DNA of 63,302 nucleotides, the filler included, from Dimargaris cristalligena (taxonomy: Eukaryota): NCBI GenBank assembly GCA_003614675.1. It is 9 parts of 9 records of this genome, joined end to end, with 100 filler letters (N's around TTAATTAATTAA, not from the genome) between each part and the next. Parts side by side here need not be neighbours in the genome. Positions count along the whole stretch, not along the records: positions 49,391 to 56,301 come from ML003471.1; 8 more parts are not named here. The stretch is one strand, 5' to 3'. The notes under the pieces were generated by a model. It was not told where the DNA came from, did not search any database, and was given only the letters and a program-made list of their open reading frames with translations. Made by a program: the position numbers and the translations under genes. This document shows positions 1-63,302 of this stretch, one piece after another (within the stretch, counting starts at the first letter, position 1; the number at the start of each line of letters is the position of its first letter).

Positions 1-3000
1 CTAACATAGAAAAGAAGGGAAAGAGGGGAAAAGTGTAATGTGGTGGGGCACCACACTGGTACCATTGGTGAGATTGCCCCATCTGATCCTCCTAGTTGTG
101 TATTTTGAACCAGTCCAATATTCCATGGCTGCGACAATATTGTACTAATTTGAGCACAATATGGGAGCTGCATCCGTCAACCTATCTCTAGAACTTCAAC
201 TCATACATTAGACTCTGCTCCTCTTCGTACATTGGCTGTATTTTTCACATAGTTGATTATATAACAAATATTGATTTTCCAATATAAATACTTGAGCATT
301 ATAGCTAACTCATCAACCAGCCAATTAGTTACCTGATATAAGCAGGGATTCAAATAAACATGTTAGAATTCATAGTTACATCAGATCTTAGTTAAATAAT
401 ATACTAAAATATGAATTGTCAGTTATGTTAATATGAAACTGAGTACTAGTCACCCCCCCTTACCATTTTGGGGCTCCAAGATACTCTATAAGCCACTATT
501 TCTTAGTTAGACTAAACATGAAGGGGCAATACAAAGGGGAGGGATGTGCATTCCAAACTTTTAAGGGAAGGCAGACTAAATGCCCCAGCTCAACCATATG
601 GAATATGCCTTATATAATTGGATTGAATATATTCCATGTATAGTACATGGTGCGTGCCGATTGATTGTAAGAAAGATTGTAGAAATAGACGTCATATAAA
701 TTTCTAGAATGTATTAGGTCATAAAGAAGAGCAGCAACGAGCTATGTTATCTTCAATAAATTCAACAGTCAAATCCTTTAAATAGTCAATACAAGGGTAT
801 ATATATACATAGATTTGTAGTGCCGTGAGAATGTTGGCCGACAGCCTTCAGTATCCGGCTATCAATTTATCCACCGATTCTTATGTTGAACTGACGATTA
901 TCAAATATTACAATACTTATGACTGTTTTTCTTATCAAATACTAACGATTACAATTGATATGACGAATTTCATGAGAAATATTCCACGCCTTTTGGGAAG
1001 TCAGCTCCCGATTTGTTATTTTATATTCATGTTAATGGCCATGTGTTGTGATGTTATTATGACGGTATTCAAGCCTGCTAATAATATTCTGTGTTATTTA
1101 TAACAACCAATTTACGACCTCTGTTCGGGGAGCCCTCTTCCTGCAACGGAAAACAATATTTTGTTCATAATTCCCATTTTCTTCACGATTACTATAAAAT
1201 AAAACCAATAATTTATTAATTTCTTCACTCAATATACAAAAACGCTTAATATTTTCTCTTCAATGTCGCGCCTCCCCATTCGTTCCTCTGGGCCTAGCGT
1301 CCCACCTTCTTCCGGCCCGGGTACACCGCCGTCCACGCCCCAGCGCTCTGCACTTGAGCAGGGTACACCAGCTCGTATTCCGAATCCTAGCGGTGAATTA
1401 GATGACCCCGAAGCCAACACAGATTTATACCGGGTTATTTTATGTCAACACCGAGATGATACATGGTAACTATTCAGGCAGACAGTGGAAAACCAGTGGG
1501 GTTACAAAATCCAATAAATATTGTTAAATGAACTACTATAAGTAAAATAGACAATGCTCACAGATTGATGCAGAGTGTATTTCCAGTCATCAATACCTGA
1601 TTTAATAATACTAGTTGAAAGTGCAGCCAGTCAACAAAAAACTGGATATACCATCCTGACTAACATATACGGTTTAACCCAGTGATGTAATTGTTAATGT
1701 ACCCATTTCAGTCAGCTAATCCATTAATTTCCATCGAAACAAACAAAGATACTCTTCCACAGCCCCTCCACTATCCACACTGCCCCGATAGCATTATCAA
1801 CTTTACAGAATAATTCAACCCAGTTGCCTTGTTACCGGCCTTTATTCTAAGCTTAATTTTAAATGAAGGTATATCAGAAAATAGACAAGGCTCAATGAGT
1901 GAATATAAATTGTGGTATAAAAAGGATGCCACCTCCAGCTAAATACTGCAAACTATATCTACAAAATTATTTGAACCATTTATTAAAATCAATAAGAACA
2001 TTTAACCTGCACTTTGGCAGGCACCTCCTGATTTCTGATTATTCGGAGGCTGCTACAATCTCCCCAGTCCTGTCTGCCTTGGACAGTTCTGCTCTGGGGT
2101 CACCTACAGGGTAATCCTTTAGGGCAAATGAAGGATACCCGGCAGCACCCTGTTGAGGGTACTTAACAGTTATTGTACCCTGCATTATTGCAGGGTGTGG
2201 CCTAAAACGGTTTATTCCAGTGGCCACCGGGAAGATAGGAGAAGGCCTTTGTATGGCTATTTAAAAAAAAATAGACAATGGAAAGAAAAAAAAAGGTGGC
2301 GAGTTGGAAAGCAACTTTGTGGGACAGATCCTGGCAAAATAGTTGGAGAAAGCTTTCAAAAGTGTGAAGTTGATGTTAGGATACAGGGGGGGAAATTTTC
2401 TTGTATTTATATAGCCACTGCTAGCGATTCTATTCATCAGATATAGTACAGGGTGTCTACATATCTTTTCAAAGTAGACTGCAACCAGGTATCTATTCTA
2501 ATATCCATTATGGGAGACAATGCCCGAATTTGTTATGAATATTAGGAATGGGCCAAGAACTAGATATCACACCCCGGTATTCCATTTATTACTTTGTAAA
2601 ATAGCTTCATGTATGTCTACAATCAATCATTATATGTTATTATAGTCATTATACTATATTTAAGCACATTCGTTTGGTGGTATGACCTAAGTCGCTAGCT
2701 GCGGCACCTGGTCCTATGATAGGTTTATAGCCGAGGCTTTCGATAGGAGGCTTCTTCAAAATAAATTTTTTCAAGACGAAAATGCAGAAAAGCGCCCTGG
2801 ACCTCCAGGTCTGTTTTCATTCAAGGACAATCAGAACAGCCATGCCGGTTAGACCCTTTATTATTATCTGCTGTAGGCCTTATTTGGGTAGGATGGATCC
2901 ATCTTTCGGAAATTGTAATACACTACCAATGGCTCCAACTTAACCTTGCCAGTTAGGCTTACACACTGATCAAGTGGTCACCAACGAGACATAGCATAGC

Positions 3001-3308
3001 AACGGCTAAATGCTGCGCCCCTGATAGAAAGGGTGAAGGTTCTTGTCCTTTGCTGATCGGCCCGAATAATGCATGGGCCTGTAATTATTCATGAACATTC
3101 AAAGTATAATTGGGATTGACTAGACACATTAAATTACTGTTTTTTTTATCTGTATAAATTGGTATCTGTGGGTACTGGGATGGAGGTGGCAGGTCTGAAT
3201 GGTGTACTCCATTGACTAATTATTCAGTTATGATTCTATAAAGCCATGTGAATATAGCCTACCAATTTTCTTATGAGTTTCCTTTCCTGTTACTGTTTTA
3301 GTGGTCTC

Positions 3309-3851
3309 TGTCAGCCCTCCTAATCCCACCTAAATATGGAAGTACTTATCATCCCATCCTATCTTGCCTTATAGTACCATATTACCCCTATTCTCTCATA
3401 TTACCCCCTCTGACTGACCCCAACACTTCACATACAATACTCCACTGGCCAATCCAACAACCCCCAGTTCTCATGAGAAGTCTTCCAGAAGCAAGGCCAC
3501 CTGGTCAGTCTTCCCCTATTATAATTAGTCTTTATCCTATTCTCCTTAGGATCTCTCATTACAAGTGGTCCCTATATATAAATAGCTGGGCCCCTCTGGG
3601 ACCAGTTAGTTCTTCAGCTTATTCTTATCCCCTATTTACCTCAATAAACTCCCTATATACTCACCCAGTATACTGACTAGTAAGTGTGCCCACTGCACGT
3701 CCCTTGCATTAGCCTATACTTACCCTTTATTGGTTAGTGCTATTCCCACCCTAACACTAGTAGCCCACTTGGCTGAGTCTAAGCCCCACCTACCATTAGA
3801 AGCCTACCCCTAGGACTCTTGATGAACTAAGAGTAGTTAATTTAGGTGACA
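3309..3851 (+). mobile_element. Solo LTR, family A (~550-590 bp)
   Basis: TGTCA...TGACA termini, TATA-like run and AATAAA, and the shared 3' block GAAGCCTA..C.GGACTCTTGATG.ACTAAGAGT.GTTAA found in about 11 copies in the window. No TSD recognised here. Confidence 0.8.
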
Positions 3852-3921
3852 CTGGTAGAGGACTAAACTGAATGGTCTCTCAAAGGAAAGCCTCTGTACC
3901 CCTATTATCTGTAGACCTACC

Positions 3922-4181
3922 TGTTGGAAATTCATTTCCCCCGTCCTACTGATTCCATCTCTGTGATTGGCTTGTCCTATACTTGGGACTTTACTATAGC
4001 CGTTACTATATCATCCTATAACTGGAACTTCGTCCTAATCATTATTACTGCTATTATTCAATTCAATAAAACCAACCGTGGGCATCTAGCTTTGCCCCTT
4101 GCGGTTCTTTCTCTCTTCTTTGAATTGTTTTAGTTGTATCTGAAGGCACTTGTGTTTACCATCAAACTTATATTTCCAACA
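3922..4181 (+). mobile_element. Solo LTR (260 bp) with perfect 5-bp TSD
   Basis: Termini TGTTGGAAA...TTTCCAACA, flanked by CTACC on both sides (3917-3921, 4182-4186); internal AATAAA. A related copy lies at about 17786-18071. Confidence 0.85.
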
Positions 4182-5508
4182 CTACCTGTACCTTATAAAG
4201 GACTGTAAGGTACTATGGAAGGAACAGACCCCCACCCACAAAGGACCATGGAGATGTAACCTGAAGATGCTCAATTATAAAGGACCATGGAAGTGCACCC
4301 TCCAACAATACTAATCCCATTAGCAGACAAGTTAAGAACCACCAGAGCATAGTGATATATCAATTGACCTGTACTAACCCATGTAGTATGCCTCTTATAA
4401 AGTTACGTACAGAACCTCCCAGCATTGACCTCAAGAGAAGAATGAAGCCAAGCAGAAACAATCCTAATCAGAGACTTCTGACTGTATTCAGACCTGGGAG
4501 ACATCCCACCCCCCTTAATAATCCTCCCCTGAAAGAACCCCCTAAACCAAACAGCAAGATCTACTAGCTCCCTGTATGCCAGAGCAACTGAATACCTCCA
4601 AATCTGCAATGAACAACAGAACTGTAGTTTGCCCCTTAGTACTCGCATGCTGGGGCCCAACTACCAATTACCCTAGACCATCACAGATGGGGATGCTCTG
4701 ATCACTAGTTGCACTTGCTGAGGCACCTAAGTGACCACTACTACCAACAATGACCCCACCCCCACCAGCTCAGAGACCCAAGCCAGTTAAAGGAGGGAGG
4801 AGACTACCCCAGTAGCACAGCCCATGTATAGCACCAGAATATGCCCTAAAGCCAGTGAATCAATTCCTGTCCCAGTCAATTCAGATAACACACTCGACCT
4901 CCCCTGCTATGAAGAGTGGGACTAAGCAACCCCACCATGCATTGAAATCAGTGACTCCCTAAGCACAACCATGTTACAACCTCTGAATCTAGCCCCATTG
5001 AGTCGGACACTACAAGCTGCTCCTGTAAACAACCTTGACTTATACCAAGAAATCCTGGTACTGCTATGAGAACAGAGTGCCCATCAGTACTAGACCCAGG
5101 AATGGCCTGCCACAAGCCTCCTGGCAATCACTGACTGGGTACAAGGAATGGAGGAATACTAAGCTGCCTTACAGTATCAAGAAAATTCCACTCAGGAAAC
5201 CCTGAGATGCATTAAGGTAACCCTAGCTAGCCAGACAAACAAGGCCCTGGACACATCCCAGGTCCTCCCTGACACTCCTGTACTGACATGGATCACCCCC
5301 AGAGGCTTACTGTAGAGCAGCTACCAGAACACCCAGTTCCAGGCCCTGTCATTCAATAAGACCCAGTACTTTGATGCCCAAGGAACACCCTAGCTGAACA
5401 ACTACTTGTCTGGAACTATCTTGGCACCCCCACACCCCATAGGAACCAACCCAATAACCAGCCCCAATACACAGCCCACTAATAGTACCCCCACTCACCC
5501 TAGGTAAA

Positions 5509-5732
5509 TATTGAAGAATATGTTCCTACGTGTTCTTTATTCTATCCTATTTTTACCCAATTACATTAGTTTACTCTGCTATCATGAGATCATTCATATT
5601 AGCTAATTATATTTCACTCTACAGAAATTATAACTCAATAAAACTAACCACCTAGAGGTACCTACCGTCCTCTAGCTGCTTTCTTCCCTTACTTCCAGTT
5701 TTATTTCCTTTAAGTCCTTAGTATTCCAACAC
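5509..5732 (+). mobile_element. Solo LTR-like repeat; second copy truncated at about 63205-63302
   Basis: T(A/G)TTGAAGAATATGTTCCT start shared with 63205; ends TTCCAACA; internal AATAAA. Confidence 0.65.
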
Positions 5733-6460
5733 ATAGTACCAGGGGTGACCATGGGGGGGGGGGTTCAATATGGTACTATAAGGCCTGATATAGCAGATGA
5801 TCATCCAGTCAGATTAGGTCGGATTAGGAGGGCCGATAAGGGGAAGAGGGGATGGCAAAGTAAATAGTGGCAACAATAAAGAGACAGGGTAAATCTTCAA
5901 CTTTCTCTCTCCTTTTCTCTCACTAAAGCAGTGAGAAACAGGCTTAACCATGTTTATCTGTTCATAGTGGAACATTCCATATTACAGTTATCCTACTGGC
6001 CGAAGTAGACTGATTTGCAGAATATGGGCAAGAGGGGTGAAGCTTCTAGACAATAGCAAAAAATTGTCTACTTCATAACCCAAGAATTGTCACAAGAGTC
6101 GAGATGTAAGTCTCTGTATTATCAACTTGAACGGTGGCGGCCAGGTGGTCATCATGCAATTGGCAGAGGTGGAAGGACGGGACGGCATTCCCAAAACATA
6201 TTTCACTTAAATCTCTCTACACTACTGCAATAGAGAACAGCAGCCTGAATAGTAGGGAAGCTAGTGAGACAGTTTTTTTAAAACTGCCCATATAATGAAT
6301 GACGGCCACCTATACTCCCTTTACAGAAAAGTATAAATACCACTTGGCAGCCCGCTCTTCTGGTAGCAGTATCCACTCATCCGCACTTCATCCAAAGCAG
6401 TTCATTACAACTCATCTCATTCTATGTTTTCCACTTACCCGAATTCCCACCATATCCACC

Positions 6461-6682
6461 ATGCAATTTACCTCGTTTTTCAAGGCCCTCCCCATTGCCA
6501 TTGTCGCTCTTTTTGCTGCGGCCCAGGCCAACCCCGTTAATGGCCATTCTGACAGCTCCGCCGCTCATGCCCAGGGGCTTTTCTGCCGTCAACTGGCGGG
6601 TACAACCACTTCGGTTGGAAAACGATTCATATCTTCAAAAGAGCCCATTTTTTGGCCGACCTTTTATCATAAACATCAATAG
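6461..6682 (+). CDS. Small secreted peptide precursor, 73 aa, orphan
   Basis: ATG in CCACCATG context and TATAAA at about 6332. Signal-peptide-like MQFTSFFKALPIAIVALFAAAQA-NP and a KR dibasic site. Confidence 0.55.
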   Translation: MQFTSFFKALPIAIVALFAAAQANPVNGHSDSSAAHAQGLFCRQLAGTTTSVGKRFISSKEPIFWPTFYHKHQ

Positions 6683-6982
6683 ACTGATTTCTCCTTCCAG
6701 CTCCTGCCACTCCACTTCGGCCTGATTTTATTAAGTCATAGTAGCCTTACGCTACCTAGCATGCTCAATCAGACATCCATATCAATAAAATCTCTATGCG
6801 TAATCCCCATTAAAGACGAGCAGTGTCTCAATGTGCCCATTATTTCTATTAATAGTATGAATGAGCATGGTTCCCACTCAGCTGTTTTCTCACAGTGTTC
6901 AGGCAGGAACCACTGCTCCATCATAAGTCCCCCACTAATCTGGGGCCATAACTGTACTATAAAATATAATTCAGTTTAAGCC

Positions 6983-7082
6983 NNNNNNNNNNNNNNNNNN
7001 NNNNNNNNNNNNNNNNNNNNNNNNNNTTAATTAATTAANNNNNNNNNNNNNNNNNNNNNNNNNNNNNNNNNNNNNNNNNNNN
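6983..7082. other. Artificial contig-joining spacer (N44-TTAATTAATTAA-N44); identical spacers at 14065-14164, 21143-21242, 28201-28300, 35240-35339, 42279-42378, 49291-49390, 56302-56401
   Basis: Identical 100-nt N blocks with a six-frame stop linker. Contig lengths never increase (6982, 6982, 6978, 6958, 6939, 6939, 6912, 6911, 6901), consistent with size-sorted unlinked contigs. Confidence 0.98.
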
Positions 7083-7334
7083 TTTTGGTCATCATTAGCA
7101 GTGCACTCCTTGGTATCTTCTTTGATGCCCTAGTCTATAATAACCCACAGGTTCTTGGTAATAAGAGTATACCATATGTTCATAGCCCATATTTCATAGT
7201 TGTTGGAGCTATGCAGGAGGTGGGCAGTGTTAATCTTAAATATGGATATAGTGGGGGTAGGAAGGGTAAAAGTGAGAAGAGTAAATGGAGAGCAATAATT
7301 AAGTCAAAGTTAAAGTTGTTAGTCTCATAATCGA

Positions 7335-14262: not shown

Positions 14263-14269
14263 AACAGCC

Positions 14270-36325: not shown

Positions 36326-36536
36326 TGTTGGAGAGGTATTCTAGATAGAATTTGTAAGCTAATAAAATATATTAAAACAATAATAAGAGAGAAAAGCCAC
36401 AAAGAGATTAAGGAGAACCTCTTCACTTAGTTTTATTGAGTAATGACTGAATAGTTGATAATAGAATGTAAATAAAGTCAGGTGAGTAAGATAATTATAA
36501 ATGTGACCCCGGTTATGAGGTGTCCATTTTCTAACA
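36326..36536. mobile_element. Solo LTR (211 bp) inserted in a MITE
   Basis: TGTTGGA...TCTAACA flanked by ATATT on both sides; MITE halves at 36241-36325 and 36537-36596. Confidence 0.75.
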
Positions 36537-39525: not shown

Positions 39526-41037
39526 AGTGGGCAGTAGAGTAGACGGGAGAGAGATGGGAGGGCTAGTCGTAACAGACAATGAGGCCGAGCTGAAGATATT
39601 TAGAAATAGAAAAAGAGGATAGGAGCAAAGTAAAAACCCGAGAAAAGTACAAGGGGTATGTGGATCAGCCAGGCCAGGTAGAGTAGGTGTATTCGGCCCA
39701 CGAACTCTACCGTCAAGAATGGCTGTTATGTGTGTGTGGGCTTTTTACACTAAGGTTAGGCTAGTGGAGAATTGATTTATCACGTAGCCTTCTACTCATA
39801 CTAGGCTGGAGATGTGCGGTAAAGCAGATGGAGAAAGGATAGCGGGCGGGCCCTATATGCACTCTCCATACAGCGAGGGCATGGTTGGCCTGGCGGACCT
39901 TATCGGCCAACCAGATGACCCAATTCGCCCAACCAACCACCCCGCGTATCGTATCATGTGACTGGCTGGATTTGGCTGCTATTGGATCTCCGGTGGCGCT
40001 GTTCCCTTGGAGCCGCAAATAAAACCAACTAATGGAAGCAGTCGAACACATCAGCTGTAGAATCATCCCGTTCCTTAGTGGCGAATACGAAGCGGGGTCC
40101 CTTTTAATTCCCACATTGGTTAAGCCGACTCTGGCAAACGGGACTGCTTTGTCCTCAATGCAAATCGGCCTTTACCTTTTGCGGCATTGCGCATAGATAC
40201 CTTCCACCCCTCCCCCCAACCATCACCTACTTACATTCCCCGGGCCCCTGACTGCACTCCTCTCCGGCCATAGTCACTTGCACTTGGCCCAAAGTAGACA
40301 AGGATATGCGGTATTAGATAATCCCTATTCGATTCGGCCACTGGAGTAGTTAAGGCCCCAATTGTTAGGAAGTTATAAATACATTTATCCCCCAGATCTA
40401 GATCGGAACAACTCAGGCATTCCCAAAGACATTAGCTAAATAATTTGATGCCTATCAATCACAAAGTCAGAAACCATACTGCTTTTCAATACTTGTATTT
40501 TGTAGGTAATGGTCGCCTATCACTCCAATTTCCGGTGTGTCAGTAATTACATTAACCAACGGCCGAAATTGGTCAAGGACGCCCATAGTAATCCCTTTAA
40601 TCACCCCACTGTTTTATCTCTGGTATTGGGGTTAATTGCACCATTTACTACCTTGGTTCATTAGAAAATATATGCCCAAAACAAGGCCTTAGTTGGAAGC
40701 TCGGCTCGATCACCTCGTACAAAAGACGAAACAAAATGATCGATAATGGAAATGCGTAACAATTTATAGATACAAGTTAAATGAATGGATTTGGAGTTTG
40801 TAATCAACCTGGATCAACTTTATCATTCACTAGCACTAAAATCTTTGCAGAAATAGAAGTAATAAACTATATAAGGTAAATACTCAATATCAGTGTATTA
40901 GTGAACATTTTGCAAGATACTTGGGAACAATGTGCCATAACTATAATAATGGTCACAATACTTGTTTCATACTCTCTGTTCTATATTGTGAAATCACTCC
41001 CGGCACCTTAAACAGTACCCTAGCTAGGCCTACAAAC

Positions 41038-41660
41038 ATGTCGAAAACACCAGGCCTCTCTGGTTCAGCTAGTCGGCCAAATCCAAGGGTCTGGATGACA
41101 TCATTCGAAGAGACCTTGGTTAAAGCCAACCGAACTTACCCTCGTCTGGAGGATATTCCTTGAACTCATTGTTATCAAGATATATAGCAACCACCAGATG
41201 GCACTGGTTACCCGGCTCCTAGAGAGGTACCTGACACTACCACCGTAAATACGGCGTTTCGCGGACAACATACAGTTACATGTCCCATTGGCGCTACATG
41301 CGTATTACTGTACGGTGCAGGGTTAGTATAATTTTATATTCCGTCGATTCTATCACTTGCGATCACTCCCAAATGTATTCATGTAGGTGCGATACAAGCG
41401 CTTCCATTGGACCCAGCAAAGGACTCCACCGTCACCTATGAAGCCACGGACGGGGTGTAAACCTCCGGAACAGGATCTAGAGTGACGGCAGTGGCCATTT
41501 TTGACAAACAACTTTCGCCGACGAATACATGGACACCATTGGAAGGATTTATATATGACCAGTAGGCTGTTGGATATAAACCCGTTGAATTTGATCCAAA
41601 AAACGGTGGAGTAGTATTCAGTACACAATAGCGAATCCCAAGTCCGGGAATGAATCAGTT
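41038..41660 (+). pseudogene. Disrupted gene of unknown family with one probable intron
   Basis: A protein-like frame from MSKTPGLSG to CVLLYGAG, then a GTTAGT...TAG intron-like gap (about 41321-41386), then AIQALPLDP...GGVVFSTQ; several in-frame stops. Confidence 0.35.
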
Positions 41661-42479
41661 TCTTTAGTATTAGATATTGGTTCCAAGCAAACTCGATTTG
41701 TTTTTATTTCAAAGGAATAATCAGCAAGGGTGGCATCAAAAGTAACCATTATTTTCGATTGAGAATTCCATATTTATTTGGTTTACTTTATAAGTAAATG
41801 ATTACACAATCATCATTGCGTTTCATTAATCCCACTACTGCTCTGTCTGTTCGTTAGAGACGACAATACCATTGCCAAATTCCCTGGCCTAATCCCCTAA
41901 GTATGAGTTGTTTGGACTGCACTCCCAGGCAGGTTCCGGTCTGCTCCCTCCTGACCAGACGTTGCTGAATCCCCCTAACCCCCCAAGCCCCATCATGACA
42001 ACCATCGGTTGAAATGGTTTATAGATGCTGCTGATGCTTAGTTATTTATTAGTACTATTTATTACACTCAATGGACAGGTCTGTAGTATACAATCACTAA
42101 AAATCTACCATGTATATAGGCAAATAACACGATTCAATGCATTTTGATAGTAAAAATAAAAGATGCCTATATAAAATCGGTTGGAAGAACGGAATATCAA
42201 AAAGAGAAAGATAAGAACCATATGGGTGGAATTCAGTGCAGCTGTATAAGGTTTTGAATGATGCACGTATGGGGAAATNNNNNNNNNNNNNNNNNNNNNN
42301 NNNNNNNNNNNNNNNNNNNNNNTTAATTAATTAANNNNNNNNNNNNNNNNNNNNNNNNNNNNNNNNNNNNNNNNNNNNGCAGGGGCTCATTCACTCATCA
42401 GGGGCGTACTTCCGATAAGTGCGAAAAATGGATTAAAAATAAAAGTAGGTTAAAAATGTGGTAAGTTCACCACAGCAAC

Positions 42480-49290: not shown

Positions 49291-49396
49291 NNNNNNNNNN
49301 NNNNNNNNNNNNNNNNNNNNNNNNNNNNNNNNNNTTAATTAATTAANNNNNNNNNNNNNNNNNNNNNNNNNNNNNNNNNNNNNNNNNNNNATTAGT

Positions 49397-51964
49397 ATGA
49401 ATATAGATGATTATTGTCAACAAATTGTATCTAAAGTAATAAAATGCGATGATTATCAGCAGAAAGGTTATGATAAATTAAAATTAAGTTCACCAATATC
49501 AAAAATTGTTGATTATGTAATAAATCTATCAGATTTGGATTTATATTGTAAACAGTTGGTAATTGAAAAATGTGTATGTATTATAGAAGATAAGTATGTT
49601 AAGAATATTATAGATACAATTGATTGAGATAATGATAAGGATGTTAGTTTGAAAAATATTATATTTAAGGATTGTGTTAAAGGATTAAGTGTTGATATTG
49701 ATAGATTGATTAGTTTGTATACAAAGAGTAATAATAAAAAGTTAGTTCAAGAGTTAGATAATTTTACTTCTGGAAACAATTTTGATGAAAATATATATAT
49801 TGTATTATGTATAATGTGTTTGGGTAAATATAAAATTATTAATATTATATATTTGATTATTATAAGATTGTTATCTGAATCACATACGGATAAACATGTT
49901 GTTATTACACGTATTCATGATGCTGTCATTAAAAAAATTAAATATATTAATAATATGGATGAATTGATTGTTAATTCTCGTTTAGATATTTCAAATATTA
50001 GAAGTATTATATTGAGTATGCCTGATATCTCTAAAATACAATTGGGATTAACTTTATATGAATTATCTAGTAAAAATTTAAAATTTATTGGTTCTTATAT
50101 TGTTAAGGAGGATCTTAAAAGTTTATATAAAATTTATATTAAAAGTGAATATATTCAAATTATTCATGATTTTGCTCTAATTCCTATTAAATTACCTATG
50201 ATTTATAAACCAAATATATTTGAAAAAAATAATAATGGTGGATATTTAACATCAAAAATGAATATTATATGTGATTATGAAAGTATTATAAGACAAAATC
50301 ATGCAAATATTTATAAAAGTGAAATCAGTGATATTCAATATGATGCTATTAACTATTTAAATAAACAAAAATTTATTATTAATAGGGATATGTTGGATTA
50401 TGTTGTTAATGAATGGAATAATGATAATAGTTTATTTTTTAATGGTTTAAATAAACTTAAAATTTATACTGACGATGATTATTATAAACAAATTGATATA
50501 CAACAACATAATAGTAAATATTGAATGTATCGTAATATAATTAATATTGCAATTTTATATAAATGTTATAGTATTTATATACCTGTTTATATGGATTTTA
50601 GAGGGAGAATTTATCCTTTATTAAATTATTTAACTTATCAAGGTGTTGACTTGGCAAGATCATTAATTCTTTTTGATGATAATGAAGAAATAAACGATGA
50701 TGGTATATCATATTTATATCAATATTTTGCTAATGTATATGGATTTAATAAGAAATCTATTAAATATAAAATTAAATGAGTTGAAAATAATATAGACAAT
50801 ATTATTGATTTATATAATTATAATAGGTCTAAATTTAATGAAGATATATTATCTAAAGTTAAAGAACCTGCACAATTTATTAGTACATTATTAAGTATAA
50901 TTTCATTACGTGCGGGTAATAAAATTGTTAATATACCTATATTATTTGATGCAACATGTTCAGGTTTACAACATTTATCTGCTTTATGTGTTGATACATC
51001 TTTAGCCAAATTAGTTAATTTAACTGATAATGATGTACCTAATGATTTTTATGAATATGCTGGTAAATTTGTTTATAAACAAATCGAAGATTTGGATGAT
51101 AGTGAATTAAAGAATAAATTTATTAATATTAAAATTGATAGAGAATTTATGAAAAAACCTGTTATGACTAAACCATATAATATAACTATGAATGGTATGG
51201 GTAAATATATAACAGAAAATTTAAATAAAATATATGAACATAATAAATTATATTATCAGATCCCATCTATGTATACAGTCAATGATAAAAGTATTGTTTT
51301 ATCTGGATCTGAAATGGGTCGTTTTATTAGTATTATATATAATTCAATTTATAATATGATACCTCCCATAAAGAATTTAAATAAATATTTAAATGATATG
51401 ATAAATTTGATGTGTAAAATAGATTTATCTATAAATTGAACTACACCTTCAAATATGTTGGTTAGTTTATCAAGTAGAAAATTTAAAACTGTTAAAACTA
51501 ATAGTAAATTATATAAAAGAGGTAAATCTATATCAATTTCGTTACCTCTAAATGAATACAATTTTAATATAATTAAACGTGGTTTTATGCCGAATTTTAT
51601 ACATTCAATGGATGCTGCAAATATACATTTATTAATAAATTTAATACTTAGTGATAAAGATTTGTCGTTATATACTATACACGATTGTTTTGCTAGTACA
51701 CCTAATAATATGGGTAAAATTAATAAGTTTGTTAGAAATACCTTTATAAAATTATATTTCGATAAAAATTATTTAAATATAATGCATAATAACTTTATAG
51801 AACAAATAAAATGTCATTATACTGTATATGATAATGATAATATTAAATATTTTTATATTGATGATGAATTGGTCATTATACCAAATTTACCATCTAGTCC
51901 ATGAGATGACCTTAAAGATGAATTTATTAAGAATATTGCTAATTCTAAATATTTCATATGTTAA
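49397..51964 (+). CDS. rpo: Single-subunit T3/T7-like DNA-directed RNA polymerase, 855 aa (genetic code 4)
   Basis: ORF pieces are all in one frame, separated only by TGA (49625, 50522, 50777, 51437, 51902), ending at TAA 51962-51964. Motifs DFRGRIYP, FDATCSGLQH (A), RxxxKKPVMTKPY (B), PNFIHSMDA, TIHDCF (C), C-terminal SKYFIC. Confidence 0.93.
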
Positions 51965-52020
51965 TCCTCATGAATTTATCTTTTCGTTTCGAATTTTTAT
52001 CTAAACCCTCTCCTTGTATA

Positions 52021-55000
52021 TTAATTTGATTCCATTAATATAGTTATAATACATGCGCACAATCTTAAAGTAATGGTCATACCTGCCGTGATTATAATAA
52101 TTTTATTTGTATCAAACATATTATCATTGTTAATATCATTAGTAATATCATCTTTATCATAATCACTTGTCGTATCTATTGTATTTTCTTTATTCTGTAT
52201 GGGAATATGTTCAGATGGAGTAGATGAAACTTCATTATCTTTAAGTATATTCGAGCTATCATTTGTTAAATCATTTGTTGAATCTATATCATTAGTATCA
52301 TTATTTAAAACTTTAGATTCAAGATGTTCAGTTTTATTAATTAATATATTAATATTTTCAGATAACATATTAACATTTTCACTCAACATTATTAAATTTT
52401 CTAATGTATTCTCGGATATTTTTGATATTTTATCAACCATATTTTCCATATATTTTGAATTTGTTATTGTAGATAATACATTATGTTTTAATTCACTTAT
52501 TTCATTTAATATAACGTTATTTTCATTAGTTAATTTATCTAATTTATTTAAGGCTTCATTAAATTTACGTTTCAAAATAATATCATTTTTAATAGAATTA
52601 TGGTATGTAATTTTCATATAATCAAGATTTTTCCTGATAGCATTAATTTGATGTGAAACATTATTTACATTATTTAAGTCATTTGATATAGAATTAATCT
52701 GTTCTGAAAGACTTTCAATATTATCCAAAATATCATTATCTACATTACCAAAAAGATAATTTTTCATTATGGTTTGTATTAAATTGATAAATATAGTTTT
52801 ATTAATAAAAATAATAAAATTTAATAAATGCGACATAAATTTATATAAATATTTATGTTTATCTTCAGAACTATTATCATCTTCGTTAATATAATCCATT
52901 TCATCATCAGAATCATCATCATATAATTCTATAGTCAAATTGTCATCATTAATAATATCATCTTTAAAAACCATATTATACATAATGATATGTCACATAA
53001 TAAATATAATATAACATAATATTAATGAGATAATAAATATATCTATAAATCTCAATTTGGTATATACAATACTTAACAATCTTGATCATGAAAATTGGGT
53101 TATTTCTTTGTCATCCATTTCATTATCATATGATTGTTCTGGACATAATTTAATTAAATTATGTGTATTTAATGGTGGAGCCAATAATTTATAAGGTATA
53201 GTTTTATATATAAAATTTATTGGTACAGTAAAATTTTCAGTTGACCCAATTATTTCATAATTGTTCTTAGAATTATCTAAATCAGATTTAATTGATTCAT
53301 CAATACCTCTAATCCTAATGTTTCTATTTATTATACTAACATAACCATCTCTATTATTTCTAATAAACATTTGTTTAATTATATCAACAGATTCACCATT
53401 TAAAAGTTTAATAAAATCATTATAAGTTAATCCATTTTTACCAACACCTTTAGCTTTTATAATTTCCATACCATCACCATTATTAATATAATATAATTTT
53501 GGTTTAATAAATATACCCTCCTTAACAAAATATTCTAATTTCATTTGACCCAATTCTTTACCAACATATTTTGATTCTAATGGTTTTTCTAACACCACAG
53601 AATCTGTATCAGAATATATACAATTATTACCACTAATATTTTTAAATTTATTAATAGCTATACGTGCATAACCAGTTATAGCTGCTGCAATTGAAACAGA
53701 TGATTGTAAACTTCTAGATTTATCAAAATTCTCAGAAGATTCTGGTATCAATAATTTACATAATTCTCAATCAATTTTCTTACCAATTTTAACTAAACAT
53801 CTAGTATCACCAGTCATTAATATATCAGTATCATGTATTTTCATAGATGGTTCATTAAGTTGGTCAATACCAATAATTTTTGTATAATCATCAATATTAT
53901 TCTGTCCCATTTTACCATATAACGAATTTAATATAAGTTTTGCAATTAATCTTTGTGCAGAATCATTATTTTCTTCTGCTTCAAGTTTTAATTTATAAAT
54001 TGTATTTACAAATTCATCAAATAACCCAGATACTCTATTAAATTTATAACCACACAAAACATTAATATTATAACCGACACTTCTAGCATATTTCAATTCT
54101 TCACTAAAATATCATCCAGAAAAAGAACCTCTAGGTTGACTAATAGTAGTATCATTATCATTACGATAAGGTAATATAGGAACTTTTAATATATTATCAT
54201 CAGGTGCAGTAATATGAGCATAAACAAACCCAAATATATTATCTAAATTTGTTTCAGTAGTAAAAATAGGTTTACCAGTAGGCATATCATTTAACATAGC
54301 TTTAGGATATTGAGAATTCATATCATAATAATATCCATCATTAATTTTATGTTGTACAACTTGAACTACACCACCATAATAACCTTTTCTAATATCCTTT
54401 TCAACAATACCAGAAATAACAGGAATAGACATATTTTTTTCATTATAAAAATTAGAAAGAAATAATTTCAAACTTAAAGAAGGCAAAGTTTTAGAATCAG
54501 TAATATTAATACCAAATTGATTATGAATTTTCTCACCAAATTTAATAACAACTTGATATAAAGATATCAAATCACGTCTTAAATATTCATATAACTCATC
54601 TTTCAATGATCAATTATTTTTAATACATAAATTATAAGCTTCTTTAGTTACATCATTATTATAATAATTAATATCAGGTGTATTACCAATATAATTCAAA
54701 GTATTTTCATTAACAAATTTATAAGGGAAAATACCTTTAGTAACTTCACAATTAAATGCTTTACATAATGTTTTCAAGTCAGATCTTAAAAACAACAAAC
54801 TGTCCAATATATTAATTGAATAATTTTCTTTACCAATTTTAATATAAATTTTAATAGAAATCAAATCATTATCTTTATATACAGTTTTAAATTTATAATC
54901 AGAATTTAATAAACTTTTAACTATATATCCACCATCAAATCCAGATAAATTATGAATAAAAAAGGTATATTTATTATACATTTTAGAATTAAAAATATTA

Positions 55001-56211
55001 TTAATCATATCAATAATTACATCTTGTTCATTATCAAAATAAAATATTTCAGAACTATCATTAACATAATAACCACATGCATATACCTTTTGTACACCAT
55101 TATTCAATGTAAAAGTTTCTAAATCCATTGTACCAATATGATTATTAAAATCAATAGTTCGACTTAATGTATCAAATGTATTAACTTTATAAATAATATC
55201 ATTTTTAACATATTTACCAATAGTATTAAAATATAATTTATTATTTTCATATATACGTATATAACCATATTTATTCAGAATATCTTTAAAACTCAAAATA
55301 AAATTATTATTTTCATATACATCAACAACATATTTTGATTCAATTATGGTAACTTTCAATAAGAATTCCACACCATCAATAATACATTTATATAAATTAT
55401 TAGAAATTAACACACCATAATTAGAAGGATTAATTCTATACACAACAGAATTTAAATTTTTCAATTTATTAATTCTTTTAATTAATTTTTGTGTATTAGA
55501 CAATTTATTCTCTACAGGATCATTATTATCTTTACTTTTAATAACACTTAAAGCTTTATTATATATATTTTTAAACTCATTTTCTTCAATTCACACTCTA
55601 TAACAGATAATAATATCAAATGTATCAGGGAAATCGTATTGTTGGCTAGATTTAATAATATTCGTATATAATCTCAAATTCAATGCACTAATATTCATAT
55701 CATTATATATAAAAAATCTTTTACTCAATGTAGTAACACGTCTCTCACCATCCTCATCAATACATCTTACCATACACAAAGCACTATATATTTTATCATT
55801 ATCCAATTTATCAATTATATCAGCTAACCCAGGTATTTCTTTAACATAAACACTATAATTCTCTATAACAAATTTATATTTATAACCCTTATAACCCATA
55901 CCAACAGAAGAATTAACATTTTTAAAAGCTCTACGCAAGTTTACATACTTATCATTGATCATTAATGTTGGTACAAACAATAAACTTTGCACATTAAAAT
56001 AATTATTTAATACAAAAAATCGGTCCCATAGAGACAGCCCATTATATATTTCCATTCCCGTTTGAATAAAACATACCTCAGTATGTGATATAATACCAGC
56101 TAATAATATACTACTTAACAAAGGCAGTATTAGCACACCAGCGAATGTCAATATTAGAAATATAATATTTATCGTTATATAGCAAACAAAGTTAATATAT
56201 AAGAAGATCAT
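52021..56211 (-). CDS. dpo: Protein-primed family B DNA polymerase with N-terminal hydrophobic/terminal-protein-like region and fused C-terminal TM-acidic-coiled-coil-TM extension, 1396 aa (genetic code 4)
   Basis: Single frame with only TGA codons (55591, 54610, 54112, 53767, 53086, 52993) until TAA 52021-52023. ExoI TMDLET, ExoII IHNLSGFDG, ExoIII YLRRD, PolA YDMNSQYP, WYFSEEL, PolB KLILNSLYGK, PolC YSDTDS, KAKG. Confidence 0.88.
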
Positions 56212-56252
56212 AGTTTTTATTTTAGTAGGGGGTAAGATATCCCTCTATTAGT
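56212..56252. promoter_or_regulatory. 41-bp divergent intergenic junction with 10-bp imperfect inverted repeat (candidate origin/bidirectional promoter or joined termini)
   Basis: TAGTAGGGGG (56223-56232), 8-nt loop, CCCTCTATTA (56241-56250). Lies between the dpo ATG (56211, -) and the repeated rpo ATG (56253, +). Confidence 0.5.
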
Positions 56253-56296
56253 ATGAATATAGATGATTATTGTCAACAAATTGTATCTAAAGTAAT
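56247..56296 (+). repeat. 50-bp direct repeat of contig start 49391-49440
   Basis: ATTAGTATGAATATAGATGATTATTGTCAACAAATTGTATCTAAAGTAAT is identical at both ends; the last 5 nt of the contig (TTATG) diverge. Confidence 0.95.
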
Positions 56297-56401
56297 TTAT
56301 GNNNNNNNNNNNNNNNNNNNNNNNNNNNNNNNNNNNNNNNNNNNNTTAATTAATTAANNNNNNNNNNNNNNNNNNNNNNNNNNNNNNNNNNNNNNNNNNN
56401 N

Positions 56402-56615
56402 TCAATAAACTCTATATATACTCACCCCCTTGTACTAACTAATAAGTGTGCCTACTGCATGCCCCTTGCATATACCTGTGCTTATCCTTTATTGGTTAGT
56501 ACCATGCCCCCATCCTAACACTAGTAGCCTGCTTAGCTATATCTAAACCCCACCTACCATTAGAAGCCTATCCCTGGGACTCTTGATGGACTAAGAGCGG
56601 TTAACTTGGGTGACA
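56402..56615 (+). mobile_element. 3' part of a family-A LTR at contig start
   Basis: AATAAA...GGGTGACA. Confidence 0.8.
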
Positions 56616-58300
56616 ACATTGTTCAATAATTGGTACCCAGTATCTCCCATTTCCTAGTAAGTCAAATTATCAATAAATTGAAACACACAGTGATGGCTTG
56701 GATGTATATCTTGAAAGTGGTGGTGTAGATTTTTTTATATCAAAGTATAGGTATAAGGGACTGCAGTCTCAATTGTGCTAAGCTGGTTATTCAAATTGTA
56801 GCTTTTTGGGGTAAGAGGCCCCCCAAATACAGATACATAATCAAGTATAAAATTATTTACTACCACATAGCTCAGTTGAAACATGATTCCATCAGTATAG
56901 TAGTTATAGGTAACCCTGAGGGATATTCAACCCTAGTGTGTGAATATGGAGCAGGTGAGGCATTAATGATACAATGCTAAATATATCAATGAATTGACTC
57001 CCAGTAACAAAAAAACTTGGTGTGGTGTATTGAATAGTTTGACTATTTAGTGTTGGAATGGTGAGACCATGACCAACAATAAGTCTCACAATTGTAAATA
57101 TATATTTTTCTCATGGTTTGATATATCTCAAAACTCAGGTATTTTAATACCATGTTTTGGCTGTAAGTGCGCTTCTATCGGCCAGGGGCCCAGTGATGAT
57201 GCCATGGCAATATTCGCTACCACTTAACCTCCAATATTGGCAGGGTTTGCTGCATTTAAAGTTGCTAATCCCCTGAGTAATCACGTATAACCTTGTCATT
57301 TAGGGTGATACTCTCCCAGCTACAGGGGATTGGATCGTCCACCCCCTATAACAAAGGGGGAATATTACAATAACACACCCGTCTATATATTGCAATCTCC
57401 CCACTGAGCTCCGTGTTCCCCTCGCTCCTCCAGCTCTAACCGAGGGAGAGGGTATGCAGCTTGGTCATTCAGTAAATAACTGTGGCTTAGTATCCCTGGT
57501 AAGATGGTCTTTCCGCTTCCCCCTCACAACAACACAGAGCCAACGCGGCGGCAAAATGGCTCCAAAGCCTGTCACTACCAAAGGACGCTCAATCACTGAA
57601 GATATGCAATGTGCGTAGGCCAGGGGGGCCGGTTGGGAGCCTTCCAAGGCGCAACATGTATAACTGGCAATCATTTACAAATGGATGCATCTAATGGCGA
57701 ATCAGCCATGCGTGTAGTTGACCAGGCTGGCTGCCAGGGCCATTCCCCGACAAGATGAGTAGAAAATGCAAAATAAAATAAAGTAGCAAGGCTATGGCTG
57801 TGGAGTTCGGATGTAAGGACTCAACAATTATCCAACGGCGGCTCTCTGTCTCGCTCCATCCTGGTACTGGCACCGCTATTCTGCACCATAATTAAAATCG
57901 TCAAGCCATACTCCTGCCATTATATTGGTTGAATACAGAAGGCTTTTCTATGCAGCCCATTTCAAACTGCGACTCATCCTGCCTAAAGCAGCCGGTTACG
58001 CAGAGAACACTGGGTAGCTCATATATGGAAGGATCGACAACAGGGGGGCATGTGCCGGCTGCTCAGTGGTCAGTGATTGACGGCCCAGTGATACTCCTCA
58101 CCCATGTCCTTCCGCACCGGCCCCTGTAATTCGGAATATATAACACCAGCACTGCTTCCCCATCAGCCCACGCCCAGGTCTTTCAATAATTGTTTTGCTT
58201 ACATTATCATTTTTACCCTTCACTATCCGCCATCAACAGCTTCTTCTTCACGTCCACTACCGGTTGTTCCCCATAACTCGAACATCCTTGTATCTTAACC

Positions 58301-59647
58301 ATGCGCGAATGTATCTCGGTCCACGTTGGTCAGGCCGGTGTCCAGATTGGCAACGCCTGCTGGGAGCTGTACTGCCTGGAACACGGCATCCAGCCCGACG
58401 GTCGCCTCCAGGACCCCTCGGCCCCCCACGACAACGCCTACTCCACCTTCTTCTCGGAGACCAGTTCCGGCAAGCGCGTGCCCCGCACCGTCATGGTCGA
58501 CTTGGAACCCTCCGTCATTGACGAAGTCCGTACCGGTACCTACCGCCAGCTGTTCCACCCCGAACAGCTCATCACCGGTAAGGAGGACGCCGCCAACAAC
58601 TACGCCCGTGGTCACTACACCGTGGGTAAGGAAATTGTCGACTCCGTCCTCGACCGCATCCGCAAGATCGCGGATAACTGTGAGGGTCTCCAGGGCTTCC
58701 TGGTCTTCCACTCCTTCGGCGGTGGTACCGGATCCGGTTTCGGCTCCCTGCTCATGGAGCGTCTGTCCGTGGATTACGGCAAGAAGTCTAAGCTGGAGTT
58801 CTCCGTCTATCCCGCTCCTCAGGTGTCTACCTCTGTCGTGGAGCCCTACAACTCCATCCTGACCACCCACACTACCTTGGAGCACTCCAACTGCTCATTC
58901 ATGGTCGATAACGAGGCCATCTATGACATCTGCCGTCGCAACCTCGACATTGAGCGTCCCACCTATGCCAACCTGAACCGCCTCATTGCCCAGATTGTAT
59001 CCTCCATCACCGCCTCCCTGCGCTTCTCCGGTTCCCTGAACGTGGATTTGACCGAGTTCCAGACCAACTTGGTGCCCTACCCCCGTATTCACTTCCCCCT
59101 GGTGACCTACGCCCCCATCATCTCGGCCGAGAAGTCCCTCCACGAACAGCTCAGCGTCAGTGAGATTACCAACGCTTGCTTCGAGCCCAACAACCAGATG
59201 GTCAAGTGCGACCCCCGTCACGGCAAGTACATGGCCTGCTGTCTGCTGTACCGCGGTGACGTGGTGCCTAAAGAGGTCAATGCCGCCGTGGCTGCTGTCA
59301 AGGCCAAGCGCACCGTCCAGTTTGTCGACTGGTGCCCCACTGGTTTCAAGATTGGTATCAACGACGAGCGTCCCACCGTCGTGCCCGGCGGCGACCTCGC
59401 CAAGGTCAATCGCGCCGTCTGTTTATTGTCCAACACCACCGCCATTGCCGAGGCCTGGGCCCGGCTGGACCACAAGTTTGATCTCATGTACGCCAAGCGG
59501 GCCTTCGTCCACTGGTATGTGGGTGAAGGTATGGAGGAAGGTGAATTCTCCGAAGCCCGTGAGGACCTCGCCGCCCTCGAGAAGGACTACGAGGAAGTTG
59601 GTACCGACTCCCCCGCCGACGGAGATCTCGATGAGCTCGAGTATTAA
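58301..59647 (+). CDS. TUB1: Alpha-tubulin, intronless, 448 aa
   Basis: [13 protein letters not shown] start, [23 protein letters not shown]-terminal Tyr; strong C-ending codon bias. Confidence 0.99.
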
Positions 59648-61021
59648 GTACCGGTTCGCCGAATGCCGACTCTGGCACAGATATCAATGCGGTAGTTTAT
59701 TGTGATGTGATATCAGACGAAATTACCCATCCATATTCCTTTGGCTGTATATTCGGTATATTTGAAACCCTAATATAGGTCAACAGCATACCACTATTTA
59801 GCCCACCTATAATTCGAGACCGCTCTTCAGATAAAGCTGGCTATTGAATAAAGTATCTTGAATTGTATTTATTCGTTATGCTAGGTACACCAAGGACGCC
59901 AGCTATTGCTTACAAAACAGAAAAGCTATCCGGTTTTTTATTAACCTTTGCAGGTGCATATTTCTAATATAATAACATGTAAACGACATGTATGCTTAGG
60001 GAACATCTTTAGAGAAATTCGAGTGACCTAGCTAGCGAGGAGGGCATTCTGGAAAGGTAGCCCAATGGAGTAAAGGACGAAGATGTTGGCATAAAAAACC
60101 AAGCAGTTCGAAGCCAGAAGTTCTCAGAATTACCAGTGAAGGCCATCAGACAATGATGCTTGGTTTTGGGGTGTAAAAGTGGTGTCAACTATTTTATGCG
60201 ATTTAACATAATAACAAATGAGTGTTGCTGGGAAGAGTGTAGCTCAGGGGTAGCATGAGGTGTGTATACAGTAGTTACTGTGGTTTAGTGAGGGTTGGTT
60301 TTAGCCACATCCGCCATACATCGCACTCATCTGCATTGATAACGCCATCCTTCAATACTACTGCCACCTGTTAAACTTATCCGTTCTACACCAGGAAAAA
60401 GTGCTGGGGTTAAGAGGAAGTAATAGAATGGATGGGATTTAGATCATTTCACTTTTAATGGCTTAATGTCCAATGTACTTTTAATCCCTGAGAATGGCTC
60501 GGTGCACATAACAGTATAGTATTAAGATAAGTCAAATACGAGTAAGATAGATAAAATGGCAGACACGATACTAAGCAAAATACCAAGCCCGCTAATCCGA
60601 TGGGTAAAGAAATACCTTAGGTTGTGTTATGACCTAGACTATAGTAATCGGTAATGGGAAATAAAGTAATTTTGTATTAATTGTAATACCCTAATCGCGA
60701 GGCGACGACTCGTAAACAAGTACTTACGGAAAAGAATATCCATACGACAAAGGTAACAATGGAGATTGTGTGTATATGAGTGGAATTCTGCCCGGCTATA
60801 ACAAATTCTACATGCTATATGTATGGGAGTATCGGCGGGGGATTATTTTTCAACCAGTAGCATCTGTCTTACTTAGCGGATTTTGTGTATTATTCAGGCT
60901 GGTTGAACCCCCCTCATATAGTTTGGGGTGGCTCTGTCTATGTTGCATGGTACACTGCAATTTGGGAGCAAACACTTTCCCACTTTCAGGTCAGCCTGGA
61001 GATGATAAGGCCTGTCCCAGG

Positions 61022-61372
61022 TGTCAGACTCTCTAATCCACCCTAAACCTGGCTGGCTTAGTGTTTGACTATATTAGGCCTTATAGCACCATATTAGCCT
61101 TCCCAAGGCCACACCCACTACCATGGGATTATTATACATTATATAACCTTCCCCCTGGCCAGACTCCACCTATTCACACTAACCACTCAAGTACTGATCC
61201 ATTAAACTCTTCCAGTTACCATTAGAGTCTTCTGGATACTAGTAGCTGTCCAGTTAGCCTATTCACCTATTCTATAGTTCTAGTAGTATCCTTACCTGGG
61301 GATCTCCCTCTGGAGCTATCCCTATATATATAACTGGGCCCCATTGGGACTAGTTAGATACCTTAGCTTACC
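61022..61372 (+). mobile_element. 5' part of a family-A LTR, truncated by an inverted copy
   Basis: TGTCAGAC start; stops at CTTAGCTTA where the next copy begins. Confidence 0.75.
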
Positions 61373-61960
61373 TATCACCTGGGTTAACCATTCTTAGTCT
61401 GTTAAGAGTCCTGGGGGTAGGCTTCTAACAGTAGATAGGGCTTGGGCTCAGCCAAGTGGGTCCTAGTATTAGGTAGGGGGGAGGCATGGTTACTAACTAA
61501 TAAAGGCTAAGTGCAGGTATATGTAAGGGCCATGCAGCAGGCATACTTACTAGTTAGTCTGGGGGGAGTGAGAATATAATAAGTTTATTGGGATAAACTA
61601 GGGGGATAAGAATAAGCTGAGGAATCAAACCAGTCCCAAAGGGGCCCAGTTATATATACATGGGGGATGACTCCAGAGGGAGGTCCCTGAGGGAGAATAC
61701 TACTAAGACTACATTATACTAAATAAGCCAACCAGATGGCCATGAGGGTCTGGGAGACTCAGATAGTAACTAAAAGAGTTGTTAGATCAGCACTGGAGTA
61801 AGTGGTACAGACCAAGGAGTCCAGAAGGGGAATGGTGATATTGAATAGGGTAATCCTATAGTACCAGGGGTGACCATGGAAAGCTTTATATAGTACTATA
61901 TGGCCTAGTCAGGATGGATGATCACTATGTCTGGATTAAGTTAGATTAGAAGGGCCAACA
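61373..61960 (-). mobile_element. Solo LTR, family A
   Basis: TATCACC...GGGCCAACA. Confidence 0.82.
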
Positions 61961-62039
61961 TTGTACTATGCAGTTTTATTTACATATATCTTACTGGTCC
62001 CTACTATGTGGTCATAATATCCCCATTTAAAATACTGGG

Positions 62040-63000
62040 AAATATTCAATTATCATTTTTATGGACCTAAGCATTTACCACTCTTAGGGGTATTGGCCTA
62101 CATGCTGGACTCCCAAGGCCCTACACATATATGCATAATGTTAGTAAGACAGTTGTGCTTTCTAAAAACAATGAGGGCTAATTTAAGACCTTTATGCTCA
62201 ATGGACTCAGCCAGCTACCAAGGCATATCTTCCCCTGCAAACATTAAGGTTGGGGAGTTGTCCTGTAGGTGACACTGAATATTATCATAGGTAAGATTTA
62301 AACTTGATAGTGAGATAATAAATCGAGCTAGATTGATGGACCCTATCACTTAATCAGTACCTCTTATAATGGAAAATCCAATAATAGAGCAAAATATAAG
62401 AAGGTTTTTGAAAGCAATAGTCCTTGCATCAGTAAGTGGTTTATTATTCTTTAGGTATTGTATTTATTATAGGTAGACAAGTGTGTTTTTGTGATGCTTT
62501 CTAGTCATTTCCTGATTACAGTCAGGGAAGCAGAAATCTCATTATGAAACCCAAAGAAGATACTTGATAGGTAATAGCCATAGTGGAGATAATTAGCTGA
62601 GTATGTATAGCCATTTTTGAAATACTGATATAGCTATTCTTTAATGGGAACCATAATTAATAATGAGAGAAGCTGGTTTCTTTGGGAGGCCATTATTGAC
62701 TGGAGAAGTGTGAAATTGGATCTTAGGAAATATCTAGCCAATGCTGCCAACTAGAATTAGGGAGTGGCTGGAATGAAGTATTTGCTATGTCAAGAAAGAA
62801 ATGGGCCATGAGTTACAGTGATATAGGTGACATACAAATGAAATCTGACATTTAGCACAAAGGTCAACCAGGGTGAGGGTGAGGAGGAATGGGTAAGTTT
62901 TTGCAAAAACCAATGTGATTCAGTTGGGTCTTGTTCTGACACCTCTTATTGATAAGAATTATGGTTAATATTAAATGGACCATGTAAATATTTAGTACCA
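62040..63000 (-). mobile_element. Decayed Ty3/gypsy integrase remnant
   Basis: Minus strand retains FQPLP..SWQH..DIS*DPI..L and LLIMV (the LxPLP..PW..I..DFI..L integrase signature) with many stops. Confidence 0.5.
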
Positions 63001-63302
63001 GTATTTATAAAATACATTGTACTTACTCATCCAGCCTATCAGGGGCATGATCTTACCATTCAACTTATCCAAAGCTGGTCTTACTGTGCCATAGCACCTC
63101 CTCATTATAACTTCACTAGTGACCCAGTGATCCCTTATGATCCTTTGGTCAAAACCACCGGACTTCACTGATTACTCTCAAGCATTAATTCTGACTCCTT
63201 TGTTGTTGAAGAATATGTTCCTGTGTTCTTTATCCTATCCTGTTTTACCCAATTATGTTAGTTTATTCTGCTATCATGAGATCATTTATGTTAGCCACTT
63301 AT

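Follow-up and report, generated by a model that had tools for sequence, protein, structure and literature searches.

Directly repeated ends on an invertron-type, two-polymerase plasmid contig in a Dimargaris cristalligena assembly: a candidate circular member of a linear plasmid family

As a rule, DNA that is replicated by protein priming is linear and ends in inverted repeats, and a plasmid of this lineage whose assembled contig closes on itself raises the question of whether such a replicon can persist without ends. The plasmid considered here lies in a window of 63,302 nucleotides, filler included, which is the whole stretch of DNA that was analysed and which comes from the genome assembly GCA_003614675.1 of Dimargaris cristalligena. 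The window consists of 9 contigs of 6901-6982 bp each, linked via N/TTAATTAATTAA/N spacers, and the plasmid is one entire contig (ML003471.1; 49391..56301) of 6911 bp, made up of a 6856-bp unit, a 50-bp overlap and a 5-bp tail. It encodes a T7-like single-subunit RNA polymerase (RNAP) and a protein-primed-type family B DNA polymerase (polB). Its G+C content (GC) is 21.6%, versus 41-45% on the remaining 8 contigs, and a self-BLAST within the window found no repeats common to the plasmid contig and the other 8. The most far-reaching reading, to which we assign a probability of roughly 0.35, is that a plasmid of the invertron lineage, without terminal inverted repeats (TIRs) or linear ends, persists as a 6.86-kb circle or concatemer and is copied by its own strand-displacing polB from a 41-bp bidirectional control region. 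No circular derivative with both polymerases would have been known before this one, which was found in an early-diverging mycoparasite, and the occurrence of a near relative under a different organism label would hint at movement between parasite and host. For the more limited proposition that the plasmid DNA is truly head-to-tail, as a circle or a concatemer, we see the odds as about even.

The case for closure comes from the contig ends. A direct repeat of 50 bp, with 50/50 positions identical (self-BLAST E 1.3e-19), has its left copy at 49391..49440 on the + strand, covering the 6 nt upstream of the RNAP gene and the first 44 nt of that gene, and its right copy at 56247..56296, also on the + strand, where it adjoins the spacer upstream of polB; the start-to-start distance is 6856. 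The overlap begins precisely at the first base of the contig, as is expected when an assembly-graph cycle is cut open at a node. Were the contig ends physical ends, the inverted identity between them would amount to only 1 nt, and the RNAP gene would have its ATG 7 nt from an end; they cannot be the ends of a protein-primed molecule. TIRs that had been collapsed in the assembly would give inverted contig ends and not direct ones. No TIR was found on the plasmid contig, on which the best end-to-end inverted match measures 25 nt and is internal. Moreover, both genes are whole, and TIRs of the usual family size could not be accommodated in spacers of 41 and 56 nt.

An earlier note on this DNA had described the 50-bp direct end repeat and the 6856-bp unit, had pointed to five divergent terminal bases and had regarded the contig as self-closing as assembled, and each of these observations was borne out, the last by the direct overlap itself. 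The tail, TTATG (56297..56301, + strand), departs from the cycle, since AAAAT is read at 49441-49445. That the tail is a chimera with neighbouring sequence in inverted orientation was considered and rejected, the 10-mer that ends in it being unique within the window. The same note had proposed a circular or end-joined, TIR-minimal variant. The proposed scarcity of TIRs agrees with the assembled sequence, which is without TIRs, unlike its relatives. A circle in the cell is a possibility suggested by the 50-nt overlap with its unmatched 5-nt tail. The end-joined form is disfavoured: a palindrome is expected from the joining of two TIR ends, and none was found at the head-to-tail junction, where the best self-reverse-complement alignment nearby is AT-rich noise at 49826-49854.

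The plasmid carries only two genes, which are convergent and intact under translation table 4 (TGA=Trp); under table 11 the contig splits into 10 open reading frames (ORFs) of at least 100 aa. The 3' ends of the RNAP and polB genes are separated by 56 nt (51965-52020) and their 5' ends by 41 nt (56212-56252), in agreement with the two intact genes and the spacer lengths that had been noted before, provided that table 4 is used. TGA accounts for 11 of the 13 Trp codons of the plasmid, 5 of them in RNAP and 6 in polB. Codon 207 of polB, a TGA, sits at a column occupied by Trp in 12 of 13 aligned sequences. The presence of an in-frame TGA on a conserved Trp column indicates that this codon specifies Trp and suggests a mitochondrial setting; together with the base composition, the genetic code makes a mitochondrial location of the plasmid probable. 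A search of the plasmid contig for tRNA genes, Rfam families and mitochondrial genes found none.

The RNAP gene (49397..51964, + strand) encodes a protein of 855 aa, with TGA=Trp at codons 77, 376, 461, 681 and 836. The product matches PF00940 with an E value of 7.9e-65 over aa 431-812 (50687-51832), and, among solved structures, it matches yeast mitochondrial RNAP (1e-39), human POLRMT and T7 RNAP (1.4e-19 to 2.8e-19). The strings around DATCSGLQH, KKPVMTKPY and HDCF probably correspond to the T7-type catalytic motifs. A homologue search returned 332 matches, the best of which show 34-36% identity across at least 95% of the query, and the named matches come from Moniliophthora, Termitomyces, Lyophyllum, Neurospora intermedia and Lobosporangium.

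The polB gene (52021..56211, - strand) encodes 1396 aa, with TGA=Trp at codons 207, 534, 700, 815, 1042 and 1073, and its product matches the organellar and viral family PF03175 (E 8.6e-102, aa 411-853). When a profile was made of polB and 12 relatives, the best PDB match was phi29 DNA polymerase (E 1.9e-24), the reference enzyme of protein-primed replication (PMC5695915). The exonuclease and polymerase core, aa 351-950 (53362..55161, - strand), shows 38-45% identity to relatives; in the 13-sequence alignment of polB and the 12 relatives, the invariant columns D363/E365, D630, K758 and D868-T869-D870 are all present, and the PolC motif is the canonical YSDTDS. The N-terminal region, aa 94-350 (55162..55932, - strand), is less similar, with 18-26% identity to relatives, and keeps 6 of the 6 family residues that are conserved in at least 10 of the 13 sequences (Y142, Y192, W207, I278, D310 and R319). 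We regard this region as terminal-protein-like, with a function in priming that is only predicted.

In the case of the C-terminal extension of polB, aa 960-1396 (52024..53334, - strand), no homologue was found at E<=1e-3 among 1.84 billion representatives. Besides its hydrophobic segments, this orphan region of 437 aa has an acidic stretch and a long one, heptad-like in pattern, that is rich in N, K, E and L; it may serve as a membrane anchor or derive from a third ORF that became fused to the polymerase. Part of polB is already public under another guise: P0117, the hypothetical protein BJ085DRAFT_43042 [Dimargaris cristalligena] of 310 aa, is annotated on a 6911-bp contig, and its model maps to 54432-53280 on the - strand, spliced and skipping the TGA-containing parts of polB. 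P0117 is a mis-annotation of the mitochondrial-code polB as a spliced nuclear-code gene, which arose because TGA was taken as a stop codon.

The relatives of the two polymerases place the plasmid among the fungal mitochondrial plasmids. A search with polB gave 116 matches, the best at 40% identity, and the named ones, which include Synchytrium, Termitomyces, Russula and Podospora, are fungal mitochondrial plasmids or mitochondrial DNA. A maximum-likelihood tree was built from 51 polBs, consisting of the window protein, P0001-P0040 (4 with an organism name) and 12 further named matches, the other matches being left out. In this tree polB branches off first, and alone, within a clade of 18 rows (SH-aLRT, the Shimodaira-Hasegawa-like approximate likelihood ratio test, 97) that includes Termitomyces plasmid polBs. 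Its position makes polB a divergent polymerase of the linear-plasmid (invertron) group. The earlier identification of a T7-like RNAP and a protein-primed polB, and thus of an invertron-type mitochondrial replicon as far as the genes are concerned, is upheld by PF00940, PF03175 and the polB tree.

Apart from P0117, no near-identical polB fragment was found in other assemblies; a metagenome scan with the single protein found no close relatives, and the matches in IMG/VR, at 23-31% identity, are phage-like. A scan of metagenome contigs with the polB profile gave 80 loci, at 18 of which RNAP is also encoded. RNAP and polB are convergent in 16 of these 18 two-gene loci, as they are in the plasmid, and in the other 2 (L074 and L076) polB shares its strand with an RNAP fragment, and GC, at 42-44%, is unusually high. 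One of the metagenome loci, L025 (6816 bp, a polB plasmid), has TIRs of 275 nt, of which the outermost 76 nt (1-76 and 6741-6816) are perfect palindromes. These palindromic ends explain the 76-nt direct end match of that contig, and they reflect either a hairpin-like terminus or a fold-back in the assembly.

In the 5' spacer (56212..56252, 41 nt) we see a candidate region for bidirectional control or for an origin. It contains the single run of at least 4 G in the plasmid contig, as well as an imperfect inverted pair of a G/C-rich decamer, 10 nt long (56223-56232 and 56241-56250), that flanks a GATATC palindrome (56236-56241); read in sense orientation, one copy of the decamer lies upstream of each gene. 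The sequence GATATC, an EcoRV site, is found in addition at 50024 and 54563. The hexamer CCCTCT occurs only twice on the + strand of the plasmid contig, once in each intergenic spacer: at 56241-56246 and, in the 56-nt 3' spacer (51965..52020), at 52006-52011. The decamers and CCCTCT may be control signals, such as a promoter, an origin or a processing site. The predicted hairpin of the 5' spacer is not stabler than that of shuffled sequence (z 0.28). In a scan for sigma-70-type promoters, 78 sites were detected where 93.9 would be expected, a result that carries no information on a T7-like polymerase.

Taken together, these features suggest how the plasmid could maintain itself. It would be an autonomous mitochondrial replicon of the invertron lineage that encodes only the two enzymes it needs. 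RNAP would transcribe both genes outward from the 41-bp 5' spacer, with a decamer facing each gene, and the two transcripts would converge on the 56-bp 3' spacer. The plasmid DNA would be head-to-tail, whether a circle of 6856 bp or a tandem multimer, and without TIRs, and polB, with its terminal-protein-like N-terminus, would copy it. For replication, the putative starting point is the 41-bp spacer, where the primer might be either a protein, acting at an internal site, or an RNAP transcript. Polymerases of the polB class have been described as processive and strand-displacing (PMC5695915), and strand displacement round the circle, in a rolling-circle-like manner, would yield head-to-tail multimers. 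The gene content, the genetic code, the lineage, the lack of TIRs and the closure of the contig are seen in the assembled DNA itself; the in-cell topology, promoters, origin and priming mode given here are those that we infer from it.

Several observations weigh against a plasmid without ends. Characterised plasmids with the polB and RNAP pair are all described in PMC9925561 as linear, with TIRs and a 5'-bound protein. Among the 57 of the 80 metagenome loci that are whole contigs, and for which the end repeats were compared, 8 terminate on both sides in inverted repeats of 55-831 nt (L002, L009, L015, L016, L018, L021, L025 and L056), and 0 have a plain direct terminal overlap; in a further 5 (L011, L019, L032, L051 and L058) one arm of the inverted repeat is terminal and the other lies 88-536 nt inside the opposite end. 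The retention of a terminal-protein-like region with its conserved residues would be expected of a replicon that still needs ends. In addition, the 5 unmatched bases after the overlap represent a second continuation past 56296, which makes the graph a loop with a tail. With the unit opened at the 5' spacer, the GC skew runs from +0.47 to -0.33, about as in the TIR-bounded L002, L009, L015 and L016 (from about +0.4 to between -0.34 and -0.55), a gradient that fits replication from two ends and that is confounded by gene orientation. All this is what could be anticipated if the plasmid were, in the cell, an ordinary linear, protein-capped invertron, the junction having come from rare joined molecules, from amplification or library chimeras or from an assembler artefact. 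The norm of TIRs among relatives (PMC9925561 and the contig ends just described), the terminal-protein-like region, the skew gradient and the unmatched tail would then all find a place, and the ends would lie either in unassembled sequence or within the 41-bp spacer, for example at the centre of GATATC, which would give a 3-nt perfect and an approximately 13-nt imperfect inverted repeat; the two inverted decamers that surround GATATC may be what is left of a mini-TIR. However, ends in the spacer would put the RNAP ATG about 15 nt from a terminus, with scarcely any room for a promoter and an origin, and the spacer hairpin is no stabler than its shuffles. Collapsed TIRs would leave inverted contig ends, none of which is present, and a chimera formed repeatedly at one exact junction would presumably be rare. 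We consider a linear molecule of this kind rather doubtful. A tandem or integrated copy in the mitochondrial chromosome, as in the case of Ulva pUme, would also produce the direct repeat, with TTATG as the start of the flank. The integration of plasmids is documented, including the tandem integration of a circular RNAP plasmid (PMC9389341 and PMC9925561), and the 5-nt tail can be seen as an alternative continuation beyond the repeat. Nevertheless, both genes are intact, without decay, the contig has no mitochondrial gene, tRNA or Rfam match, and the tail ends after 5 nt, so that integration seems very improbable.

Whether circular or linear, the plasmid could reside in mitochondria that belong not to Dimargaris but to another fungus, either a co-cultured host or a contaminant. 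The caution about a host or a contaminant that had accompanied the first description of the contig was apt: the label on P0117 is Dimargaris cristalligena, and the Dimargaritales are parasites of fungi, with haustoria, whose hosts belong to Mucoromycota and Ascomycota (PMC9866270). When ribosomal DNA was sought in samples of Dimargaritales, the genes obtained were those of the host alone (PMC9866270). The sequencing runs bear on both sides of this question. Of the sampled 31-mers of the plasmid, 0.98-0.99 are present in 5 of the 5 listed organism-A runs, which come from 3 samples and 2 studies and any of which may be the source; this speaks against a host origin, though all of these runs may include the same host. 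One run (X6), labelled organism B, contains 0.45 of the sampled 31-mers and favours a host origin as a lead only; the share corresponds either to a diverged copy or to a part of the plasmid in another fungus. Among the runs listed by sampled 31-mers, no RNA run with plasmid sequence was found. The polymerase trees are without host signal, which counts against a host origin and which is due to the fact that the nearest relatives are only 34-40% identical. An assignment of the host from the genetic code, on the ground that mitochondria of Mucorales might not translate TGA as Trp, was considered and dropped; a table in PMC2488353 gives table 4 for Rhizopus oryzae. Overall, we judge residence in a fungus other than Dimargaris to be unlikely.

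If the plasmid is a true circle, it may have implications for the way in which protein-primed replicons are viewed. The fusion of a terminal protein and a polymerase would have to start synthesis internally or from a transcript, and the plasmid would be a link between the world of protein-primed linear plasmids and viruses and that of circular plasmids. It is also a candidate marker for the exchange of DNA between mycoparasites and their hosts.

With regard to the rest of the window, 6 of the 8 nuclear-type contigs (1-6982, 7083-14064, 14165-21142, 28301-35239, 35340-42278 and 56402-63302) have in common a family of dispersed repeats of about 200-600 bp and 72-90% identity, often near the contig ends.

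Among the metagenome loci, the closest complete relative of the plasmid is L002 (Ga0153943_1001496, 7177 bp), which contains the same two genes only, polB at 91..3378 on the + strand and RNAP at 7087..3371 on the - strand. As in the plasmid, the genes are convergent, the size is similar, the DNA is AT-rich (22% GC), TGA occurs inside the ORFs and the same gradient of GC skew is seen; the identity between the two is 37% for polB and 38% for RNAP. L002 differs in having TIRs (148 nt near-exact, and 299 nt at 78%), with both ATGs placed 91 nt from the ends and within the TIR, whereas the plasmid is without a TIR, and only 41 nt separate its two ATGs, which are turned towards each other.

A polB of the protein-primed type on one strand and a T7-like RNAP on the other, in fungal mitochondria, are a combination that is shared with the invertrons of Termitomyces and Lyophyllaceae and with kalilo, maranhar, pAL2-1 and pClK1 (PMC9925561), and the identity between polB and a Podospora plasmid polymerase is 31%. 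Of the features by which invertrons are recognised, the plasmid has the polB motifs, the terminal-protein-like region, the T7-like RNAP on the opposite strand and the mitochondrial code, and it does not have the TIR. Unlike the classical invertrons, it is without a TIR and its contig is self-closing. Its RNAP, at 855 aa, is short in comparison with the approximately 900-1500 aa of most of the matches listed, and its polB carries the orphan extension of 437 aa at the C-terminus, unlike the polBs of classical invertrons.

A family B DNA polymerase is also encoded by some mitochondrial plasmids that are circular, namely the pipolins pCRY1, LaBelle and Fiji (PMC5695915). In these plasmids polB is the only gene; the enzyme is primer-independent, groups with bacterial sequences and has altered KxY and PolC motifs (PMC5695915). 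In contrast, the polB of the present plasmid has the canonical YSDTDS and is grouped with linear-plasmid polBs, in a tree that is without a piPolB sequence, and RNAP is also present. Circular-mapping mitochondrial plasmids with a T7-like RNAP are known from an alga and a protist, as Ulva pUme (5.36 kb; PMC9389341) and Leucomyxa pLPM (23.1 kb; PMC11528492). These were called circular on the basis of identical contig ends or tandem copies (PMC9389341, PMC11528492), the end identity in pLPM being 77 bp (PMC11528492). Both are without a DNA polymerase, whereas the present plasmid has its own polB of the protein-primed type.

In the literature, the supplements of which were not visible, no plasmid was found that maps as a circle and has both RNAP and a polB of the protein-primed type; the supplements of the survey PMC10583447 may list this contig. 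If the circle is true, the plasmid would represent a third class of circular mitochondrial plasmids, beside those with piPolB only and those with RNAP only. Thus, if the closure is real, the plasmid would be a circular variant of the invertron family; if it is an artefact, what remains would be a divergent but ordinary new member of that family.

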